Shown: positions 1,261 to 27,266 of the stretch, in pieces
Numbering within the stretch: the stretch's first letter is position 1
Layout of the letters: every line of letters starts with the position of its first letter
Assembly (NCBI GenBank): GCA_020632555.1
Contig: JACKFI010000004.1
Location: 12,335-76,334 of the forward strand
Direction: 5' to 3'
DNA length: 64,000 bases
Source: Candidatus Omnitrophota bacterium
GTDB lineage: Bacteria > Omnitrophota > Gorgyraeia > Zapsychrales > JANLHA01
The notes under the pieces: generated by a model
Told to the model about the DNA's origin: nothing
What the model saw: only the letters and a program-made list of their open reading frames with translations
The model's database searches: none
Program-made: the position numbers and the translations under genes

Positions 1261-2001
1261 TCACCGCAAATATTTAGCCGACTTTATTTTCCGTCCCAAG
1301 TGGAAAACCAAAAAGTTATTCAAAACATACTTTAATTCTTTTTGTACCGATTCCGTCAGCTTTAAGCGTAAACAAATCGGCCATTCATGACTTTCCGCAT
1401 AAATGATTGACGACACCGCCCCCGGAGAAAGCAATTCCAGCGTCGAGTCTCCCGCGGCACAATCCCAACACACCAGACCCCCTTCCCGCAAACTAAAACG
1501 CGCTTTTTCAATAATCGTTTTTTTGCATTTGAGACACGTATCCAAATGCGGCTTAAAACCAGACAAAGACAATACTTTGATTTGGAAAAAATGAACCAAC
1601 AGACTTGAATCCCGACTTTCGACACTTTGTAAACTCTCCAAAAAATCCAACATCAAACGATAAATTTTGACGTTTTTCTCCTCGGATGGCATAATCAAAT
1701 TAACCAATTCCAAGATATAACTGGCGGCCAATGATTTCTTCAAATCCTGCCGTATCGGATAATAATAACTTTTTAAATCGCAATGACTGATCAAATGCAA
1801 ATCCGAATTGCGATACTGATAATACACAATGTCATTAACCGAAAAACGATCGACACTGCTGCCAAACTTTTTGTGATCTTTACGTATGCCTTTTAAAACG
1901 CCACCAACTTTTCCGTATTCTTTTGTAAAAAAGATCGCGATGCGGCTGGTCTCACGCAAATCAAATGTTTTTAAAACAATGCCTTCTGTTTTGAGAATCA
2001 T
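1261..2001 (-). CDS. recO: DNA repair protein RecO
   Basis: 246 aa. The N-terminal OB-fold sequence 'ILKTEGIVLKTFDLRETSRI' and the C-terminal Cys motif (CLKC...CWDC) are typical of RecO. Confidence 0.85.
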   Translation of the reverse strand: MILKTEGIVLKTFDLRETSRIAIFFTKEYGKVGGVLKGIRKDHKKFGSSVDRFSVNDIVYYQYRNSDLHLISHCDLKSYYYPIRQDLKKSLAASYILELVNLIMPSEEKNVKIYRLMLDFLESLQSVESRDSSLLVHFFQIKVLSLSGFKPHLDTCLKCKKTIIEKARFSLREGGLVCWDCAAGDSTLELLSPGAVSSIIYAESHEWPICLRLKLTESVQKELKYVLNNFLVFHLGRKIKSAKYLR

Positions 2002-3815: not shown

Positions 3816-4787
3816 TTAAGAGAGAATATTTTTCTGAGTTTGTTGATCAACCCGTTCGTAAGCTTCAATAATCCGCTGAACAAGTTCATGCCGAACAACG
3901 TCCCCGCCATTTAAATGCACAAACTTAATGCCGTCCGTATCCCGCAAAATATTTTCCGCGTCCACCAGCCCGATCGACGATCCTTTTGGCAAATCACTTT
4001 GCGTAATGTCCCCAGTGATCACCGTCTTGGAATCAAATCCTAGCCGCGTCAAAAACATTTTCATCTGAAACGGTGTCGAATTTTGTGCTTCATCCAGAAT
4101 AACAAAAGCATCATTAAGTGTCCGCCCGCGCATAAATGCCAGCGGAGCAACTTCAATAATCCCCTGCTCGGTATACTGCTCAACCTGATCGGGCTCCATC
4201 ATATCATAAAGCGCGTCATACAATGGCCGCAAGTAAGGCAAAACTTTTTCCACCATATCTCCAGGCAAAAACCCCAAGTTCTCACCGGCTTCAATCGCTG
4301 GACGAGTCAGAATGATACGGCGGACAATGCCTTTTTTCAAAGCATTAACCGCCATAGCCATAGCTAAATAAGTTTTACCTGTTCCCGCCGGGCCGATAGC
4401 AAAAACGATATCATGTTTTTTAATCGCTTCAACATATTCAATTTGCCCCTTGGTTTTAGGAATAATCAAGCCGCCGCGCAAATAAACTTCAATTTTTTCT
4501 TTCGCCAGCCGCTTAAAATCAAAACCCTTATCCGGACGGGTCAAATCAATAGCATAAACAATATCCTGCCGTTTAACATCTCGCCCATCGTCAGTGATAG
4601 AAACCAAATAATCCATCAAATCACTGACTTTTTCAACCGCCTGATCGTCACCAGAGACCTTCAAACCATTCTCATGGCGAACAACTCGAACTTTCAGTTC
4701 TTCTTCAATCAATTTCAAATGCTGATCATACTTGCCAAAGAGCGCCTGCAAGTTCTTGTTATTATTCAAATAAATAATACGATCCAT
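3816..4787 (-). CDS. phoH: PhoH-like ATPase (PhoH/YbeZ)
   Basis: Walker A 'GPAGTGKTYLAMA' and Walker B 'FVILDEAQN'. It lies next to the ybeY cluster. Confidence 0.85.
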   Translation of the reverse strand: MDRIIYLNNNKNLQALFGKYDQHLKLIEEELKVRVVRHENGLKVSGDDQAVEKVSDLMDYLVSITDDGRDVKRQDIVYAIDLTRPDKGFDFKRLAKEKIEVYLRGGLIIPKTKGQIEYVEAIKKHDIVFAIGPAGTGKTYLAMAMAVNALKKGIVRRIILTRPAIEAGENLGFLPGDMVEKVLPYLRPLYDALYDMMEPDQVEQYTEQGIIEVAPLAFMRGRTLNDAFVILDEAQNSTPFQMKMFLTRLGFDSKTVITGDITQSDLPKGSSIGLVDAENILRDTDGIKFVHLNGGDVVRHELVQRIIEAYERVDQQTQKNILS

Positions 4788-15756: not shown

Positions 15757-18700
15757 TTAAAGCGCGCTCAACTTTTGCGGCTCTTTCTCAATCTGCATTC
15801 CGAATAAAAGCGGTACCTGAATCGGCGCGATATTGATAATAACCGGATAAAACCCGTCAATTTTCATATTTTGTATCGTCTGCTGCGGCAGAGGCAAGGC
15901 CACACCTTTGTCGTCGCGCTTGATTTGCAAATCTAAGCCGGCCGAATTAAAATCAATACCACCGACGGGAGTGGGAGCTGTGACTGCAGCTGAGGCAACA
16001 TCACCTCCATCGCTCTTAGTAACTTCTGTAATTATTAATTCTTCTACATGCTCAGTCGTTGTATCTGGAATAGTTAACGGATGATCAAAAATATCATATT
16101 TCTCCAACTGCGCAATCTCTTCAGAAGTTAAATTTCTCTCAAAAGATGTTGTATAGTAATCAACCCTAAATTCTCCTCCTCGCAGAAGAATATGATAGAC
16201 CTGATTTAATTGATGAGGATATTTAATCCCCACATCTCCTGCACCTTGGCGAACCTGCGATTGCAACTCCTGGTAAGCTCGATCATAAAGCAAAACACGC
16301 GGGTCCGTGACATTTAGTTGATTTAATATATGCCTAACACTCACTTTACCATGACCGTTAATTTTATCACTCTGCAATAAGCCAACCAAAAATTCAATAT
16401 CCCCATACTCTCCCAATTTCAAAAGAGCATTTGCTTGGGCTAAATCATTTGAGCTGGTCGCCACTCGACGATACTGATTAATCATTTTATCTTTTGCAAC
16501 ATTTAATTTTTCTAATGCTGTTTCAACATCGGTATAATTTGATCCACTTAAAAGTGGCAACAATGGTTCAATAGCCCGAACATCTCCCAATTCACCAAGT
16601 TTTTGTATCGCATTCTTCAAACCGATAGCGTAATAACTACCCAAAACCATCATATACCCATCTACCATTTGATCTTTTGTGGCATTTAACTTTATTAGCG
16701 ATGTTTCTACATCAACGTAATTTGATCCACTTAAAAGTGGCAACAATGATTCAATGGCCCGAGCATCTCCCAATTCGCCCAATTTCTGTATAACGCCGCT
16801 TATGTTATCACTTCCCAAAGCCGCAATATACGCATCCACCATTTGCTCTTTTGTGACACCTAGCTCTACTAAAATCTCCCCAGCGTCGAAGCGAAACTGT
16901 AAGTTTGGATGTCCTAAAAGTTTTAGTAAAGAAGGAATCGTCCCTTTAAATCCTTTGCGACCAAAATAAATAACTGCTTTGGCTTTATACGTCCCCATTA
17001 TCGCCGAGGAGGCGACATAAAAATTATTTGCTATTCGTATTTCAGTGATATCTAGCTTAGGTGGAATAATTTTATTGTATTGAGGCGCAAGAGGATGATC
17101 GCCATTATCCCATCCGCCAAAATCAATCGGATCCTCATATCTCTGAGAATAATATCTAACCCGAAAATCTCCCCCTCGTAAAACAATTTGATAAGCTTCA
17201 GCAAATTCAGAAGGAAAACTAAAAACAACATCTCCTGCATCCATCGGCAACTCCGCTTGCAGCTTATTGTAAACTCTATCAAAAAGTAGCACGCGACGAT
17301 CCATGATTCTTAATTGAGACAAAATACTTCTGGCATGAAGAAGAAACGTACCTCTTTCGTGCTGCAATGATTCAATAACAAGTTCAACACCTCGTGAATT
17401 TCCTAATTTTGCTAAGGATTGCGCGGTAAGATTTCTAACACGTGCGTCTTGATCAGATAACCTCTCTGACAAAAACTCATTGGAACTCTCCTCACCCAAT
17501 TTCCCCAAAAGTTCTGCAAAAATAATACTCTTGTTAAAATCATTCCTATTTTTTGCCGATTCTAGTTTTGTCAACGCTATTGCACGCGCGCGCAAACCAT
17601 CAATTCTTTCCAAAGCTAAAGCAATCACCTGCAAAACAGAAGCGGTTATAACATTTTCCTGTTCTAATTTATTTATTATTGGCAACAAAGTTCTCTGAGC
17701 TTTCAGCTTGCCAAAAACATAAGCTATGTCCCGTACCGTCTGAGAACTGCTATCCTCCTGTTCAAATTTTGCCAATAACTCAGGAATAACATCTTGACCC
17801 CTCATAACAATTCTATCTAAATAGAGATAACGTTTAATATTGTTATCTTCAAGCGCACTGGCTCGCCTTAAATTAAATTCCACCTTATTTGTAAAATAGC
17901 CAATCGGGTCAAATTCGGCAACAGCATAAAGAGCGACACCAATCAAGAACATAGTTCCTGGATTGTGCGTGGCAAACTCCGCCGCCTGCTGAGCCCAAGT
18001 TGTAGCCGCATAGCCAAAGCTCTGCACTTGCTCAACCACGCCCCCCGCAGAAACGCTCCACCCACTGCTGGCCGCACCACTTAACATATAATTTTTTGTA
18101 TCAGTAACTGATGCTGGCTTGATATTCAATGGCACAGACGACGGACTTGCAACAGTCACATCACCTGGCCTAGCATTTTCAATCAAACTGGAACTGACAA
18201 CAACATCTCTACCATTTTCTAATGGTGATCCGGCGACAACTCCCCGCACATTCGCCGGCTGATCAGAAAGCGACCCCTGGTATTCTTTTAAACCTGCAAC
18301 TGTCGCCACACCAACAGAAAGCCCGCCAGAAAAATATTTTCGCGGAATCGGTTCATTGGTTAAAGCATCAGTATCTTCTTTAATGTAGTTATAAACGCCT
18401 TTCTTAAATGCCGCTAAATACTGTTCATAAATTTTTTGTTTGGTTTCTTTGTCGAGTAAATCAATGCCTTTGGTTTTATTTTGATTCACATAAACCTGCC
18501 CCAAAAGACTTTCCTTCAGGCGCTTTTTATACCACGTCGCTAAAATCATCGAATTGTAAATCTGGCGGACCGCCGCAAAATTGCGCCCTTCATTGACTTC
18601 TTTTTCAATCTCGGGGATAATCAGCTCACGCAGGATATTAGCACCAATTTTATTTATGTCATTGCGACTGAAGGGAGTCCCTTTTAGACGAGGACCCGCA

Positions 18701-19449
18701 GGTGACAAAGTAATCTTTTCAAAAGATTGCCGCGCCCCTTCGGGGCTCGCAATGACATTGCTTTGAGAGAGCGCCGCATAATCTTCTTCCAACATAACCT
18801 TCAAGTGACGTTCCACGACAAAAACACGATTATCGTTTTCATACACTGCCGCTTTGTCCGGCATAATCCATACTTTGTTAAAAGTGTTGACTGGCAATTG
18901 ATCAACCCCATACAACTTTTGCGCTTTTTCCCGTACCCGTTGCCAAAATTCACTGCCTAATTCTTGCTCAGGATAAATCAATGACGCCGTCAGCTGCTTT
19001 AAAATATAATCTTGCGCGAGCATATCTCGACCCATCTCGGTCACGCCCAAAGCTTCGGGAATGATTCGCCCGCTTTCATACGGAGAAAGATTAACCCAAA
19101 ATTCATTCTCAGGCGTTGTCAAAGACGCTAAAAAGTATTTAATCAGCTTTTGCGACTCTTGTTCAAGTGCTGTGCCTGAAATATTTTCATCACCAGTATT
19201 TACAATAAAATCAAATCGCAAAGGATTGCCTGGATAAATGCTCATTCCACGAATAATTGGCGGTTGAAAACTCTCGCTTAACCCCATCATTGTCCCAACT
19301 GCAGGCAAACTGACGCCGGAAATACCAACACTCTGGGCACTGGCTTTGGCAGGCATTAAAAATGATGTCATGCCAAAAACAATAACAAGGACAAAACTTG
19401 TCAACCGCCGTATAAAGCCATGATTTGTCATGAAAAGATTTCTTTTCAT
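15757..19449 (-). CDS. Giant secreted protein, paralog A (shared N- and C-modules, HEAT-repeat core)
   Basis: 1230 aa with a signal peptide ending 'AKASAQ'. About 380 aa at the N-terminus are homologous to ORF 22779-27266. The core has PBS-lyase-type HEAT repeats ('LGELGDARAIESLLPLL') and a duplicated domain ('RVLL(F/Y)DR(V/A)Y..LQ...LRGG(D/E)FRV.YY'). The C-terminus is 'GGIDFN...YPVIINIAP'. Confidence 0.7.
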   Translation of the reverse strand: MKRNLFMTNHGFIRRLTSFVLVIVFGMTSFLMPAKASAQSVGISGVSLPAVGTMMGLSESFQPPIIRGMSIYPGNPLRFDFIVNTGDENISGTALEQESQKLIKYFLASLTTPENEFWVNLSPYESGRIIPEALGVTEMGRDMLAQDYILKQLTASLIYPEQELGSEFWQRVREKAQKLYGVDQLPVNTFNKVWIMPDKAAVYENDNRVFVVERHLKVMLEEDYAALSQSNVIASPEGARQSFEKITLSPAGPRLKGTPFSRNDINKIGANILRELIIPEIEKEVNEGRNFAAVRQIYNSMILATWYKKRLKESLLGQVYVNQNKTKGIDLLDKETKQKIYEQYLAAFKKGVYNYIKEDTDALTNEPIPRKYFSGGLSVGVATVAGLKEYQGSLSDQPANVRGVVAGSPLENGRDVVVSSSLIENARPGDVTVASPSSVPLNIKPASVTDTKNYMLSGAASSGWSVSAGGVVEQVQSFGYAATTWAQQAAEFATHNPGTMFLIGVALYAVAEFDPIGYFTNKVEFNLRRASALEDNNIKRYLYLDRIVMRGQDVIPELLAKFEQEDSSSQTVRDIAYVFGKLKAQRTLLPIINKLEQENVITASVLQVIALALERIDGLRARAIALTKLESAKNRNDFNKSIIFAELLGKLGEESSNEFLSERLSDQDARVRNLTAQSLAKLGNSRGVELVIESLQHERGTFLLHARSILSQLRIMDRRVLLFDRVYNKLQAELPMDAGDVVFSFPSEFAEAYQIVLRGGDFRVRYYSQRYEDPIDFGGWDNGDHPLAPQYNKIIPPKLDITEIRIANNFYVASSAIMGTYKAKAVIYFGRKGFKGTIPSLLKLLGHPNLQFRFDAGEILVELGVTKEQMVDAYIAALGSDNISGVIQKLGELGDARAIESLLPLLSGSNYVDVETSLIKLNATKDQMVDGYMMVLGSYYAIGLKNAIQKLGELGDVRAIEPLLPLLSGSNYTDVETALEKLNVAKDKMINQYRRVATSSNDLAQANALLKLGEYGDIEFLVGLLQSDKINGHGKVSVRHILNQLNVTDPRVLLYDRAYQELQSQVRQGAGDVGIKYPHQLNQVYHILLRGGEFRVDYYTTSFERNLTSEEIAQLEKYDIFDHPLTIPDTTTEHVEELIITEVTKSDGGDVASAAVTAPTPVGGIDFNSAGLDLQIKRDDKGVALPLPQQTIQNMKIDGFYPVIINIAPIQVPLLFGMQIEKEPQKLSAL
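18658..18756. repeat. 99-bp palindromic repeat element embedded in frame in paralog A
   Basis: GTCATTGCGA (18658-18667) is the reverse complement of TCGCAATGAC (18747-18756). There is an inner hairpin GATTGCCGCGCCCCTTCGGGGCTCGCAATGAC. It is translated as '...SRND...VIASPEGARQS'. Confidence 0.6.
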
Positions 19450-22778: not shown

Positions 22779-25700
22779 TCAGCTTTTCTGAGCCAAGATA
22801 TCTTCCTCACGAATAGCTTTTTGCCGATCTGCTGGTGAGAGCTGATCTTTAAACGCTGCCTTCTTCTGCTGAGCCTCTTCAGCCTTACTTAACAGCGGGA
22901 AATTCGCCATCGTTGCCGGCGCGATATTGATAATAACCGGATACAATCCTTCGATATTGATATTCGGCAAGTCCTGTTGAAATACCGGCAAAGGAACGCC
23001 ATTCTTGTCTCGTTTAACTTGAAGATTCATTAAAGTCGGATCAAAGTTGATACCACCGACTTGCGAAGAAGCCGTAGCGCCGGCTTTCACATCTTCGCCA
23101 ATCTTGTTAATGGTTGAGTCATAAGCCTTCAAAGCTTTAACAATATTCCAGCGATTATTCTTAAATACTTTAATTGCCTCATCTATTCGATTCTCTCGAT
23201 TTTCTAAATATGGATTCTTAAAAGCAATAATGTCACTAGTCAAATCACGAACCCACCCGATATCGATTCCAATATCGAGAACGCCAGATTTTAATGCGGC
23301 AGTTAACGCCTTGTTAAGCGAATCGCCCAAAAGCGCAGCTATAGCCTTATTTAATTCTTCTTCACTTGATTTAATCTTAGATCCTCTTGCCTGATCTCCC
23401 GCCGGCAATCGTTGAGCTTTATCATAAACCGCCCACACTTGCTCAAGTTGATCAATCATCTGCGTTAACGCGCTGGAGGAGACCACTTGATCCAAAACGA
23501 TATCCACAAAATTTATATCCAATTCTTGTAACCATCCTTCAAGTTCTGAGAATTTTGTGCCGATCAATCCTTGCGTATAACTATCCACTCCGTCTACTCC
23601 TGCATTGTCTATACTATGTTGTGCCCATAAATCATGCATCTGTGTTCCAATATTAATAACCATTAAATCTTGTTGGGAATCTAATTGACTCCCAGATTTA
23701 ATACGTTCTAAGGCATCTTTAACCTGACTTCGTACTGCTTCTAAATCCTCTCCTTGACTTATTAATCCCTGAATAACATCCACCGCATCTTGCAATCCAA
23801 CGCCATCCATATCTTTCAAATTCTGTGTCTTATCAACATAGGGCGTTGTAAATAAATCCATATAAATAACCCCTTGGGCGTCTCTTCCTATGTGTTCCCG
23901 GCCTTTGAGAATTTCAACAACCCCACGTTTTTTCTTATCTTCTTTAGTTGGAGTAATCCATTCTCCCTGAATACCAGACTTGAGAGTTTTATCGTCATTG
24001 GTAACAAAGCGCGCTTGTGTCCAATTTGCCTTTGTCTGAGCCCCTTGCGCATTTGTAGCTATATATCGCAATGTCGCTTGCTCCCCTGACTTTTCTATAA
24101 TATCTGCTGGAATCGTCACCGCACTGGCGGCGGAGGCCCAATGCTTAACAATTCTCTTTGCAACGTCTGTCGCATTGTCCTGACCACGGGGAATAGCATA
24201 ATTTGGCGTATCGATCAAGATATGCTTAACAAGCTTTTCCTGCTGATGACGATGTTTAATGGAGTTCAGTGCGATTTCTACAGCAGCAATCACTTGATCA
24301 TCCGCTTTACCAACCGTATGAACTGGCTGACCTTTCTCGTCAAGAATCATAATTCTGTAATCATCCTCCCCAGATAAAATTGCAACAAAAAGATCTAGTC
24401 CCTTAACATGCATCGGAGATATAGAACGAACCTCTCGACTGCCAGGCATAAAAACTGTCACACTTTCCCCATGCCTAAGAGTAATTTTAACTTGATAATC
24501 ATTTATGATCTCTGCTTTAACCGCGCTGGAGGAGACGAAAGTGATTTCCACAATATTCTCAATTGGTATTTCTTGAGATATACCAGTCAGGCTTATGCTT
24601 CTAACTGTTTTATTTGATTGAGCCTGCTGCAGTTTATTAAGAATTCCCTCAGAATGATTTCTTGCAAATTTTTTTATTGTTTCAATATTAGAATCAGACA
24701 AATCATGTTTTAAACGTACTTCTTCTGAAGAAACGAATTCGATAACTTCCGAATCAAGCAACATATTTTGGACACTTTTTTCTTCATCGGTAGCCTCACC
24801 AAAAACAAAAGGCTCAAATTCTCGAGTAATAGCATCAATCTTATTATTATCAAGCTTGTATGCCTGCACTGCTCCATCGACGACAAATTTTATTTCACGA
24901 ACACGCGTATCCTTAGCAACTGTACCATTTTTAATTGCAGCCAAAAGTGCATCTGCACTGTTTAACTTAATTATTTCTCCAGCCGTCACAGCGCTGGCGG
25001 CGGGCTCGCTATTCTTTAAGTCATAAGCCTTCAAAGCTTTAACAATATTCCAGCGATTATTCTTAAATACTTTAATTGCCTCATCTATTCGATTCTCTTG
25101 ATTTTCTAAATATGGATTCTTAAAAGCAATAATGTCACTAGTCAAATCACGAACCCACCCGATATCGATTCCAATATCGAGAACACCAGATTTTAATGCG
25201 GCAGTTAACGCCTTGTTAAGCGAATCGCCCAAAAGCGCAGCTATAGCCTTATTTAATTCTTCTTCACTTGATTTAATCTTAGATCCTCTTGCCTGATCTC
25301 CCGCCGGCAATTGTTGAGCTTTATCATAAACCGCCCACGCTTGCTCAAGTTGATCAATCATCTGCGTTAACGCGCTGGAGGAGACGAAGATATCTAAGGA
25401 AACAATATCATTGATCGCTACATTTCCCCGCAAAGAAAAATCTATGCTCGAAACTTCTCCGTACTCATCTCTATTTATGCGATCAATTGTTCCAACATTT
25501 GTAGTAGAGGCGAAAGACCCACGAAACTTTCCACTTCTAACTTCCTGCCCAACATTGATTTCACCATCCTCTATACGCAAAGAAATTTTATCCCCAGAAA
25601 ATTCTTTTGAATCTCGTTGCGTTGACGTCTTGGCGGGCAAGCCTACACGTGCTCGAACAGCATTTTCTTGATACTCATATGTTGTTTTTAAGTTCTCAGC

Positions 25701-27266
25701 AAAAACGATTGCCTCTCTACTTGCATTGCTATTCGATTGTTGGGCATAATTCAGATTCGCATTTGCGGCATTTACTAATCCTTCATAGGTCAATTGATCT
25801 ACTTGATTACCACTGGCCTTTTCTATAAGACCAATTATCTGGTCTTTCAATCTAGCTTTCACGTCTGCTGGCAAAAACGTAAACTCTCTTTCGAAAGCGT
25901 TGGTCACTAATGCTTTTGCTTCATCCACCGCGCTGGCGGCGGATTTGGCGGCGACTTTGTTAGCAATGGTACGACTGTCTTGACCATTCACCTCTCCCAT
26001 CTGAACCATTACATCAGCATCATTAGCATTAACTGCTGATGCAGCAACACCATTTGCACCCTTTTGAACTACATTAGGTAAAACAACCCCACCGGAAAAA
26101 TAACGTGTCGGCACCGACTCAGCTGTATTCATATCAAAATCTTCTTTAATCATATTGTAAGCGCCTTTTTTGAAGGCTTGGACATACTGATTGTAAACAT
26201 CTTGTTTGAAACCCACAGCGTCGGTTTCGATGCCTTTGACCTTGCTTTTGTCGGCATAGATTTTGCCCAATAAAGATTCTTTCAAAGCGCTTTTGTACCA
26301 GACAGCGAGAATTGCGGCATCATAAATTTGACGCACAGCAGCGAAGTTTTTGCCTTCATTGATTTCTTTTTCGATACTGGGAAGAATGGTGGTGCGAAAG
26401 ACTTGGGAGGAAATTTTCAATATGTCATTGTCAGCAGCCGCAGGTGACCCAGCAATCTTATCCTTACTGTCATTCCCGTAATCTTTTAACGGGAATCCAT
26501 TATTTGTAAAAGGATCCCCGATAGAAGCCTTCGGAGATGACAAATTTGAAACAGATTGCTTCACTTCGTTCGCAATGACAGAGCTTTTTGCTAACGTCTT
26601 TTGCATAGCATCCAGATCCTCTTCCAACATCACCTTCAAACGATTTTGGGTAATGAAAACTTTGCCGTCTTTTTCGGCGACTTCGGCCTTGGCCGGCACA
26701 ATCCACACCTTATTAAAAGTACTCATCGGAATATCAGTGGTCCCAAATTGCTCTTGCACTTTCGCGCGAACATTGGTCCAGAACTTTTTGCCCAAGTCTG
26801 TTTCGGGATTAGTCAAGGAAGATGCTAATTGTTTCAAAAGATAATCTTGCTCAAGCATAACCTTGCCCATTTCGGTCTTGCCCAAAGCATCAGGAATAAT
26901 ACGATTGGCTTCATAGGGAGAAAGATTGACCCAAGCTTCTTTGTCGGGAATGGTCATCGCAGTTAAAAAAAACTTAACCAGCTTTTCGGACTCAGCTTTA
27001 AGCGCCGGGCCCTGAATTTTGTCATCGCCGCGGCCAACGATAAAATCAAATAAAAACGGATTCTCCGGATGAATATTCAAACCTTTGAGCGTCGGCGCGA
27101 TAAAAACCGGCGAAATCGTCACCGCCGTCCCCGGAACAGGCAAAAGGCTGGCTAATTGCGCGCTGGCCGGACCAGGCAAACTCATAAGAAATGTCAAAAT
27201 GATTAAGCAACAGATTATTTTTTTGACAAAAACAAATTTCCGACGAGCGGCAAAAGACAAAAACAT
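22779..27266 (-). CDS. Giant secreted protein, paralog B (shared N- and C-modules, modular core with a near-identical 122-aa duplication)
   Basis: 1495 aa with a signal peptide ending 'GPASAQ'. The N-module is homologous to paralog A ('WVNLSPYE..RIIP..LG.TEMG..ML.QDY.LKQL'). The C-module is 'GGINFD...LYPVIINIAP'. GGGAGG RBS. Confidence 0.7.
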   Translation of the reverse strand: MFLSFAARRKFVFVKKIICCLIILTFLMSLPGPASAQLASLLPVPGTAVTISPVFIAPTLKGLNIHPENPFLFDFIVGRGDDKIQGPALKAESEKLVKFFLTAMTIPDKEAWVNLSPYEANRIIPDALGKTEMGKVMLEQDYLLKQLASSLTNPETDLGKKFWTNVRAKVQEQFGTTDIPMSTFNKVWIVPAKAEVAEKDGKVFITQNRLKVMLEEDLDAMQKTLAKSSVIANEVKQSVSNLSSPKASIGDPFTNNGFPLKDYGNDSKDKIAGSPAAADNDILKISSQVFRTTILPSIEKEINEGKNFAAVRQIYDAAILAVWYKSALKESLLGKIYADKSKVKGIETDAVGFKQDVYNQYVQAFKKGAYNMIKEDFDMNTAESVPTRYFSGGVVLPNVVQKGANGVAASAVNANDADVMVQMGEVNGQDSRTIANKVAAKSAASAVDEAKALVTNAFEREFTFLPADVKARLKDQIIGLIEKASGNQVDQLTYEGLVNAANANLNYAQQSNSNASREAIVFAENLKTTYEYQENAVRARVGLPAKTSTQRDSKEFSGDKISLRIEDGEINVGQEVRSGKFRGSFASTTNVGTIDRINRDEYGEVSSIDFSLRGNVAINDIVSLDIFVSSSALTQMIDQLEQAWAVYDKAQQLPAGDQARGSKIKSSEEELNKAIAALLGDSLNKALTAALKSGVLDIGIDIGWVRDLTSDIIAFKNPYLENQENRIDEAIKVFKNNRWNIVKALKAYDLKNSEPAASAVTAGEIIKLNSADALLAAIKNGTVAKDTRVREIKFVVDGAVQAYKLDNNKIDAITREFEPFVFGEATDEEKSVQNMLLDSEVIEFVSSEEVRLKHDLSDSNIETIKKFARNHSEGILNKLQQAQSNKTVRSISLTGISQEIPIENIVEITFVSSSAVKAEIINDYQVKITLRHGESVTVFMPGSREVRSISPMHVKGLDLFVAILSGEDDYRIMILDEKGQPVHTVGKADDQVIAAVEIALNSIKHRHQQEKLVKHILIDTPNYAIPRGQDNATDVAKRIVKHWASAASAVTIPADIIEKSGEQATLRYIATNAQGAQTKANWTQARFVTNDDKTLKSGIQGEWITPTKEDKKKRGVVEILKGREHIGRDAQGVIYMDLFTTPYVDKTQNLKDMDGVGLQDAVDVIQGLISQGEDLEAVRSQVKDALERIKSGSQLDSQQDLMVINIGTQMHDLWAQHSIDNAGVDGVDSYTQGLIGTKFSELEGWLQELDINFVDIVLDQVVSSSALTQMIDQLEQVWAVYDKAQRLPAGDQARGSKIKSSEEELNKAIAALLGDSLNKALTAALKSGVLDIGIDIGWVRDLTSDIIAFKNPYLENRENRIDEAIKVFKNNRWNIVKALKAYDSTINKIGEDVKAGATASSQVGGINFDPTLMNLQVKRDKNGVPLPVFQQDLPNINIEGLYPVIINIAPATMANFPLLSKAEEAQQKKAAFKDQLSPADRQKAIREEDILAQKS
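23118..23483. repeat. 366-bp intragenic direct repeat, copy 1
   Basis: Aligns with 25020-25385 with 4 mismatches by eye. It encodes 'VSSSALTQMIDQLEQ.WAVYDKAQ.LPAGDQARGSKIK...NRWNIVKALKAYD'. Confidence 0.9.
25020..25385. repeat. 366-bp intragenic direct repeat, copy 2
   Basis: See 23118-23483. The copies start 1902 bp apart. Confidence 0.9.
26469..26579. repeat. 111-bp degenerate palindromic element embedded in frame in paralog B (homologous position to 18658-18756)
   Basis: GTCATTCCCG...GATTGCTTCACTTCGTTCGCAATGAC, translated as 'VIANEVKQS'. The alternate frame gives 'CHCERSEAI'. Confidence 0.5.

Follow-up and report, generated by a model that had tools for sequence, protein, structure and literature searches.

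Repetitive extragenic palindromic sequences (REPs) comprise two superfamilies, GTAG-tagged and CGTC-tagged, as surveyed by Di Nocera, De Gregorio and Rocco (2013, BMC Genomics 14:522; PMC3733652). Units of the CGTC superfamily carry an unpaired CGTC tag (often TGTC or CCTC), a stem that begins with two A-T pairs, and a short CCA-like tail; they occur mostly as inverted dimers and were found in five phyla, chiefly in Alphaproteobacteria (PMC3733652). Some are intragenic, in which case the dimers encode 20-30 amino acids (aa), and the superfamily was described as "seem lacking a dedicated transposase", with no RAYT flanked by CGTC units reported (PMC3733652). In Rickettsia conorii, CGTC-1 is equated with Rickettsia palindromic element (RPE) type RPE-6 and CGTC-4 with RPE-4, and the peptides encoded by CGTC-1 include VIPAKAGI, SFPRKRES and DSRFRGND (PMC3733652, supplementary file 4). 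Here, we compare with these systems a 99-bp segment of one of two giant paralogous genes, paralogs A and B, which encode surface-type proteins and lie in a stretch of 64,000 nucleotides (the window) from a Candidatus Omnitrophota bacterium (contig JACKFI010000004.1, assembly GCA_020632555.1). A first-pass annotation, made from the letters of the window, had described this segment of paralog A as an RPE-like palindromic element read through in frame. Our analysis indicates that it is very probably a non-autonomous palindromic repeat, a CGTC-REP dimer inserted in a loop of the encoded protein and carried there as a decaying translated passenger.

Two other described systems are close enough to require comparison. 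RPEs, as the work of Ogata et al. (2000) is presented in two later papers (PMC10969869, PMC3733652), are in-frame palindromic repeats in coding genes that are read through as extra peptides, with insertion proposed where fold and function tolerate it. The classical RPE-1 is ~150 bp long and unrelated in sequence to the present element. RPE copies are dispersed among numerous genes, of no common family, in an alphaproteobacterium with an obligate intracellular life, whereas those described here occupy one loop and a few other sites of one protein family, belong to several classes, and sit in a free-living or episymbiotic phylum. REP doublets forming hairpins (REPINs) and bacterial interspersed mosaic elements (Bertels and Rainey 2011, PMC3116915) resemble the present element: a single long hairpin can arise from two inverted REP hairpins together with their spacer, the dimer seems to be the replicative unit, and singlets seem to be dimer remnants (PMC3116915). 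REPINs differ in having a GTAG/GTGG-type tag, in being mobilised by a cognate single-copy RAYT transposase, and in being lineage-specific and almost exclusively extragenic (PMC3116915), while the present element has a CGTC or TGTC tag, is nearly the same in sequence across phyla, and has no transposase known to serve it.

A CGTC-type inverted dimer in paralog A

The segment runs from 18658 to 18756, exactly as first delimited, and encodes in frame the peptide VIASPEGARQSFEKITLSPAGPRLKGTPFSRND (V232-D264); SFEKITLSPAGPR is an example of a peptide from the region of residues 225-270 of A. On the coding strand, it reads GTCATTGCGAG-CCCCGAAGGGG-CGCG-GCAATC / TTTTGAAAA / GATTAC..GTCACCTGCGG..AG-TCGCAATGAC, that is, a canonical hairpin, a spacer, and a second, decayed hairpin, oriented with the tags outside and the short tails toward the spacer (Table 1). 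The canonical hairpin, which had been recognized in the first pass, has the layout (T)GTC-ATTGC-GAG-CCCCGAAGGGG-CGCG-GCAAT-C and a minimum free energy (MFE) of -14.7 kcal/mol. In comparison with canonical copies and with the homologous locus L001, the second hairpin (coding strand GATTAC..GTCACCTGCGG..AGTCGCAATGAC, encoding ITLSPAGPRLKGTPFSRND) has lost GATTGC and its arm is expanded. The 10-bp inverted repeats first taken as the bounds of the segment (GTCATTGCGA at 18658-18667 and TCGCAATGAC at 18747-18756) are present and perfect but are no evidence by themselves, and the perfect terminal inverted repeat is in fact 12 bp long (ATGTCATTGCGA at 18656-18667 and TCGCAATGACAT at 18747-18758). The reading frame stays open and conserved family sequence resumes on either side of the insert, as had been noted.

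The form at A, an inverted dimer of (C/T)GTC-ATTGCGAG..GCAAT-C(CA) hairpins, is that of the CGTC superfamily, and the elements in the window belong to this superfamily. The tag is present as T-GTC at either end of the A element (ATGTCATT.. / ..AATGACAT), and in paralog B as CTGTCATT together with a nested TGTCATT. The stem starts with two A-T pairs in A and in the outer element of B (ATTGC..GCAAT), as well as in the nested element of B (ATTCCCG..CGGGAAT), and all of these, together with the L001 copy, are inverted dimers with a spacer. A CCA tail is seen in canonical copies (GCAATCCAG) and in the nested arm of B (CGGGAATCCA); the tails of the outer hairpins of A and B are GCAATCTT and GCAATCTG, in which the first C alone is kept. 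Beyond tag, stem and dimer form, the likenesses are the variable length of the spacer, a mainly extragenic occurrence in other genomes with some in-frame intragenic copies, several stem classes per genome, and the lack of a linked transposase. The nested element of B (class C) is CGTC-1 by its sequence and its peptides (VIPAKAGI / ..FRGND), the CGTC-1 peptides of the 2013 survey being translations of class C. Because RPE-4 and RPE-6 are CGTC REPs (PMC3733652), the likeness to RPEs is one of homology at the superfamily level and is, therefore, stronger than the analogy first drawn. Like an RPE, the A segment is an in-frame insert in an open reading frame (ORF) with homologues lacking the insert, and lies in a loop predicted to be tolerant. 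The locus departs from the survey in that Omnitrophota is not among the five phyla and in that copies here are concentrated in one protein family, not in intergenic space. The class of the A element (class G) matched no named RPE and may be an uncatalogued CGTC family or a variant of one.

Chance expectation

The window contains 16 perfect 10-bp inverted repeats with a separation of no more than 120 nt, where dinucleotide shuffles give ~12, and 6 perfect 12-bp ones, where shuffles give 0.77; the bare inverted repeat of A is not significant alone. With ~12 and ~0.8 such pairs expected in the window, the codons for VIA (GTCATTGCG) and RND (CGCAATGAC) could be native, conserved codons that are reverse complements by accident, the more so as N-D is common before (I/V)N.(L/I)G in the family. 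This explanation is highly improbable. The significance of the A element derives from its match to an independently defined element and not from the inverted repeat alone: the pattern GATTGC-N6-36-GCAATGAC has an expected count of 0.03 in the window and is matched 2 times, once in each paralog and at homologous positions; an exact copy of the 32-nt hairpin of A lies in IMG/VR contig L330, which is unrelated, as ..PVIASPEGARQSHG.. in a different ORF, and versions that differ by one base in the loop were counted 8 times in L091 and L115; the segment shows the complete double-hairpin architecture of canonical copies; and it is missing from the nearest homologues. The fold of the 103-nt segment of A has z = -3.7 for the coding strand and z = -4.8 for the plus strand.

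Some candidates were rejected. A third copy of GTCATTGCGA in the window (1778-1787) has no partner hairpin, hence it is a chance occurrence, and a candidate element in B at 23993-24075 (GTCATTGG..TCGCAATGTC) was dropped for its unconvincing hairpin anatomy. A generic finder for GTCAT plus a 5-bp stem gave 95 matches against 71 in shuffles, no better than shuffles or control heads, and class-specific hairpin patterns were used for this reason.

The repeat family in other genomes

A scan of IMG/VR and of GTDB species genomes with the composite GTCATTGCGAG-N4-30-GCAATC-N0-30-GATTGC located the full double hairpin in at least 120 stretches of each, in agreement with the first-pass view of an extragenic palindrome common in genomes of uncultivated bacteria. 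The counts and hosts given next are among the matches listed. Most matches fell on both strands at overlapping coordinates and are, therefore, full palindromic dimers, with the general form GTCATTGCGAG..GCAATC(CAG)..centre..(CTG)GATTGC..CTCGCAATGAC; the 132 unique copies measure 64-102 bp, most of them 78-85 bp, and the A element has the same architecture. The palindrome extends by 1-2 further bases, Y(C/T)-GTCATT..AATGAC-(G/A)R, of which the window copy is the T/A variant; at position -1, 92 of the 132 canonical copies have C and 32 have T. No target-site duplication was found in these 132 elements. The inner part of the hairpin is variable (250 unique versions, often with a small stem of their own) and ends, before GCAATC, in GAA in 150 versions, GTG in 38, and GCG in 37, A having GCG and B having GAA. 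Of the full elements in the IMG/VR sample, 57 of 71 are not read through by a long ORF. Hosts include Bradyrhizobium, Sphingomonas, Micavibrio, and Rickettsiales including Tisiphia, as well as Gammaproteobacteria, Nitrospirota, Planctomycetota, Chloroflexi, Patescibacteria, Bacteroidales, Nostoc, Zixibacteria, Ignavibacteriota, Spirochaetaceae, and Omnitrophota.

Within Omnitrophota, intergenic copies were found in contigs L192, L276, L286 and L313, and the L192 copy, from a metagenome-assembled genome (MAG), has stops in all six frames. The peptide signatures named in the first pass (VIAS..KQS, CHCE..EAI, and ..RND) are indeed encoded by canonical copies at other places. Dimers built in the same way are formed by a second stem class, GTCATTCCCG..CGGGAATCC, and full class-C dimers were also found outside the window. 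In high-GC contigs (L091 at 4238-4269; L115 at 156-187 and 318-349), a class-G hairpin is paired with another stem class, GTCATCGCGA..GGCGATCC, to form heterodimers, so dimer partners need not share a class. Rfam gave no family at gathering score for the canonical copies and noise only for the window copy, and the insert peptides had no match in NCBIfam or Pfam. Literature searches with strings of the 10-mer, longer DNA and the signature peptides returned primer matches only, and a search on Omnitrophota and palindromic repeats found nothing relevant.

A single class-G hairpin was also observed in frame in an Omnitrophota QueA gene (L001 9546-9571, ..YRVIASGAQQSRSSIVAVGTT..), just before the conserved AVGTT motif. 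Other QueA proteins presumably have ordinary sequence of similar length at that site. The QueA of R. conorii (RC0283) is listed with an intragenic CGTC-4 REP (PMC3733652, supplementary table). The L001 QueA has, in addition, a VIPAKAGIQ hairpin at its annotated N-terminus, probably upstream of the true start.

A probable insertion in a length-variable loop

Alignments of 32 and of 122 family members revealed that the stretch from KVMLEEDY to IPEIEKEVNEG is a length-variable loop. The nearest homologues of A, P0001 and P0002 (61-64% identity), have loops of 39-40 aa with no trace of the element, and a conserved 40-aa loop is kept in a large clade of the family; orthologues that lack the insert, which had been proposed as a check, do exist. 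The 50% identical homologue P0023/L001, on the other hand, has the same double hairpin at the same loop, with the DNA sequence GTCGTTGCGAGCGAAGCGAAGCAATC-TTTTAAAGA-GATTGCCGCG..CTCGCAATGAC. An AlphaFold2 model of the N-terminal domain of A (mean predicted local distance difference test, pLDDT, 78; predicted TM-score, pTM, 0.77) shows residues 232-264 as a low-confidence coil (block pLDDT 49-57) that links helix 221-232 to helix 262-287, the rest of the modelled domain being mostly at pLDDT 83-97. The insert, therefore, maps to a predicted loop; this check, too, had been proposed in the first pass, and its outcome favours the first-pass reading.

Element-free loops have no appearance of remnants at the DNA level. 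In particular, the element-free loops of 33-34 aa (..HEGIQS..KD..) were considered as CGTC-1 remnants and rejected, as their DNA is GAAGGCATTCAA and not GGGAATCCAG.

Since the homologues come largely from metagenomes and MAGs, as the window probably does too, and short repeats can cause mis-joins, a false in-frame fusion produced by metagenomic mis-assembly at a short repeat might be considered. That is scarcely credible: the element is at most 156 bp long, family sequence is collinear and in frame on either side of it in both paralogs of the window, and the same arrangement occurs in many independent assemblies.

Nested elements in paralog B

Paralog B carries a class-G element at the same codon position as in A, and a second inverted dimer, of the CGTC-1 class and absent from A, is nested in the spacer of this element (Table 1). 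The nested dimer is, therefore, a separate event. The hairpin quoted in the first pass is exact, at 26554-26579, and the 111-bp interval given there is in frame, but the interval was wrongly delimited and is not a decayed copy of the A segment; because it began at the nested element, with GTCATTCCCG at 26469, it merged two elements. Outer hairpin 1 of B is canonical in sequence and folds weakly (MFE -3.3 kcal/mol, z = -0.36). The nested dimer alone folds with z = -5.2, and the 160-nt region forms a nested-hairpin fold of -57 kcal/mol with z = -5.5. The decayed arms of A and B both carry the non-canonical GTCACCTGCGG where L001 has GTCGCCTTCGG, which indicates that the A and B copies are related to each other.

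Table 1 Features of the elements in paralogs A and B and of their host genes (window coordinates)
Feature	Position	Strand	Sequence or extent	Encoded product or remark
Paralog A	15757-19449	minus	1230 aa	Host gene of the 99-bp element; from ORF list and translation
Class-G element of A, complete inverted dimer of CGTC-tagged REP hairpins	18658-18756	minus	99 bp, 33 codons	V232-D264
Canonical hairpin of A, first in coding orientation	18725-18756	minus	GATTGCCGCGCCCCTTCGGGGCTCGCAATGAC	VIASPEGARQS
Spacer between the hairpins of A	18716-18724	none	AATCTTTT-C-AAAAGATT	Centre of this local palindrome, 18712-18728
Second hairpin of A, decayed and expanded	18658-18715	minus	Plus strand GTCATTGCGA..CCGCAGGTGACAAAGTAATC	
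Paralog B	22779-27266	minus	1495 aa	From ORF list and translation
Class-G element of B	26424-26579	minus	156 bp, 52 codons	V230-D281
Outer hairpin 1 of B	26554-26579	minus	GTCATTGCGAACGAAGTGAAGCAATC	VIANEVKQS
Outer hairpin 2 of B, decayed	26424-26457	minus	Coding strand GATTGCTGGGTCACCTGCGGCTGCTGACAATGAC	IAGSPAAADND
Nested inverted dimer of B, CGTC-1 (RPE-6-type, class C)	26469-26541	minus	73 bp (75 with flanking T/A)	SSPKASIGDPFTNNGFPLKDYGND
Nested dimer, canonical arm	26469-26497		GTCATTCCCGTAATCTTTTAACGGGAATC	
Nested dimer, decayed arm	26512-26541		GGATCCCCG..CGGAGATGAC	

One loop captures many repeats

Eighty family loci from metagenomes, 652 kb in total, were scored for four canonical hairpin classes, defined by the patterns GTCATTGCGA..GCAATC (class G), GTCATTCCCG..CGGGAATC (class C), GTCATCCTGR..AAGGATC (class T1) and GTCATTCTGA..AAGAATC (class T2). 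The 8.5 kb of loop DNA contained 12 canonical hairpins, compared to 19 in the other 643 kb, a ~48-fold enrichment. Most of the 19 are in frame within family genes as well, at other variable loops (after ..GD.., before ..IY.QYL, before RKYFSGG and in the C-terminal motif), in the loops of second paralogues or at the 5′ end of the gene; ~5-6 of them are clearly intergenic and 0 lie within another gene. The peptides that recur among 120 database homologues and 69 locus-derived loops are VIASEAKQS, VIPAKAGIQ, VILSEAKDL..SSATPQND, and ..LPLATRND. Almost all in-gene copies, counted by eye, are in the frame GTC ATT .. AAT GAC, and one of the three frames through the dimer meets a stop (..CAA TGA C). 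Expanded loops are, in general, palindromic: with codon shuffles as the reference, z is below -2 for 15 of the 22 loops that exceed 40 aa and for 5 of the 44 shorter ones. The repeat classes found at the loop have a constant right-hand boundary, three residues before LGSQ/IGAN. One loop has independently captured many palindromic repeats, the nested pair in the window included.

Palindromes of other kinds were observed at the same loop. GTAG-tagged REP-like palindromes lie at ~5637-5850 of L247 and 5682-5825 of L274 (for example CGTAGGGGCGCGGTTACCGCGCCC and GTAGGGGCGGTTCGC..GCGAACCGCCCTTAC), and tandem-heptamer palindromes, encoding SGQWSVVS and LTTDH peptides, at 5619-5723 of L254 and 5643-5765 of L246. 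A CGTC-1 variant, GTCATTCCCGAATGYTTTTRTCGGGAATC, recurs at L275 772-800, L293 4993-5021, L320 821-849, and L313 5916-5944. In L275 and L293, it lies in the 5′ end, or signal-peptide region, of a family gene with an ATG in its loop; its context in L320 is uncertain and the L313 copy looks intergenic. This hairpin might contain or mask the start codon.

The distribution of the hairpins could be taken as a sign that the element has a selected function at the DNA or RNA level, as a recombination hotspot by which paralogous surface-protein genes exchange segments, a site of transcriptional or translational pausing between subdomains, or a targeted landing pad that diversifies an exposed loop. Consistent with this, ~24 of the 31 canonical hairpins in the 80 loci are in frame in family genes and 0 are in other genes, several repeat classes meet at the same loop with its constant right-hand boundary, the reading-frame bias is strong, one element of B is nested in the spacer of an earlier one, and family genes repeatedly carry a variant hairpin at their 5′ end. 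We consider such a function improbable, however, given that most family members, including the large clade with the conserved 40-aa loop, do without the element, that the hairpins of A and B are decaying (z = -0.36 in B; an expanded arm without GATTGC in A), and that unrelated phyla have these elements as common repeats between genes. The enrichment could simply mean that the long, disordered loops of surface proteins that are not essential tolerate such inserts.

Of the ideas that credit the loop with a special role, an actively targeted landing pad for hairpin repeats, formed by the loop KVMLEEDY-IPEIEKEVNEG and a few other loops of this surface-protein family, is also unlikely. On that view, CGTC classes G, C and T, GTAG-tagged repeats and heptamer palindromes would be directed to the loop or generated there by a site- or structure-specific mechanism. 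A cell that diversifies its exposed loops or recombines its paralogous giant genes by such means is, likewise, a speculative picture.

Proposed origin of the insert

The interpretation given in the first-pass annotation, that of a palindromic repeat inserted in coding sequence, is supported, and we propose the following origin for the A segment. An existing REP dimer would have been inserted into the loop-coding DNA by some enzyme, and selection would have retained only those copies that kept the frame, lacked a stop, and lay in a structurally permissive loop. The insert would then be translated as a passenger peptide of ~33 residues. Substitutions and indels would now be eroding it, with one arm of A and the two outer arms of B already off consensus, and such capture and decay would be the main source of loop length variation across the family.

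Several observations weigh against this origin or against the class assignment on which it builds. The described CGTC units have an 8-9-bp stem and a 4-5-nt loop. Hairpins of class G (ATTGC-GAG-variable inner stem-GAA/GTG/GCG-GCAAT) combine an outer stem of 5 bp with an internal loop and an inner stem that varies, and fall outside the stem and loop sizes of families 1-4; the nested class-C arm of B has a 7-bp stem (ATTCCCG/CGGGAAT) and an 11-nt loop. As loops of other lengths occur in some families (PMC3733652), this mismatch is taken to mark a variant and not an exclusion. Peptides of class G were not found in the intragenic list of the 2013 survey (PMC3733652). Within the 64-kb window, no intergenic copy of the element was found, the hairpins occurring only in A and B. 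No transposase-like neighbour recurs among 3307 clustered ORFs near elements, a test that is weak for RAYTs because these are single-copy; the clusters comprise only phage structural genes, explained by the bias of the IMG/VR sample, and spurious ORFs of high GC content. A filter acting after passive insertion, with a stop in one of three frames, accounts for the frame bias only in part. Although A is closer to element-free homologues than to B, it has the element in common with B, which calls for loss, gene conversion, or double insertion. The element may have been gained long ago and lost later, copied between the paralogues by conversion, or inserted twice out of a single genomic REP population. 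Finally, translation of the insert is suggested by just the open frame and the conserved flanks.

Host genes

Paralogs A and B have in common a signal-peptide-like N-terminus, a conserved N-terminal domain of ~380 aa that is 44-46% identical between them, and a C-terminal motif of ~50 aa. No Pfam model matched the N-terminal domain (18200-19449 in A); the Pfam matches of A are HEAT repeats only, further along the protein. A homologue search with this domain gave 1310 matches, mostly to Candidatus Omnitrophota/Omnitrophica where a name was given. Its confident AlphaFold model had no significant Foldseek match in the PDB, which points to an uncharacterised fold.

The C-termini (15757-15960 in A, 22779-23060 in B) carry the motif GGI(D/N)F..L(D/N)LQ(I/V)KRD..GV.LP..Q..I.G.YPVIINIAP. 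The motif recurs in P0114 and L275 and could represent a sorting or anchoring domain of this uncharacterised family. In L275, a CGTC-1 hairpin encoding MDSRLRGND is inserted within this motif. Paralog B contains an internal direct repeat of 300 nt (23103-23402 and 25005-25304, 97% identity, 1902 nt apart), which at the protein level is a block of ~150 aa present twice (VVSSSALTQMIDQLEQ..KALKAYD) and looks like a recent intragenic duplication. The start codon of A lies within a perfect hairpin with a 9-bp stem at 19426-19449 (coding strand TATGAAAAG-AAAT-CTTTTCATGAC, ending in ..CATGAC). This hairpin might block access to the start codon, or it might be one more REP-like relic.

Implications

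The A segment belongs to a known category of repeat; what is new is the phylum, the host protein family, and the recurrent hotspot. The range of CGTC-tagged REPs now extends beyond the five phyla of 2013 to Omnitrophota, Patescibacteria, Nitrospirota, Planctomycetota, Chloroflexi, Cyanobacteria, and others, and one stem class (GTCATTGCGAG..GCAATC) is near-identical across phyla though no transposase is known for it. VIASEAKQS, VIPAKAGIQ, VILSEAKDL, and ..RND or ..QND in proteins are to be read as footprints of REPs and not as protein motifs. The loop is a defined target, comparable between family members, on which the insertion of such repeats and the dominance of one reading frame can be studied. 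If the loop were indeed a landing pad, the family would be a natural system for studying how CGTC REPs move without a transposase of their own. For this very large, uncharacterised family of Omnitrophota proteins, the finding means that what appears as a "hypervariable linker" is probably for the most part translated repeat DNA.

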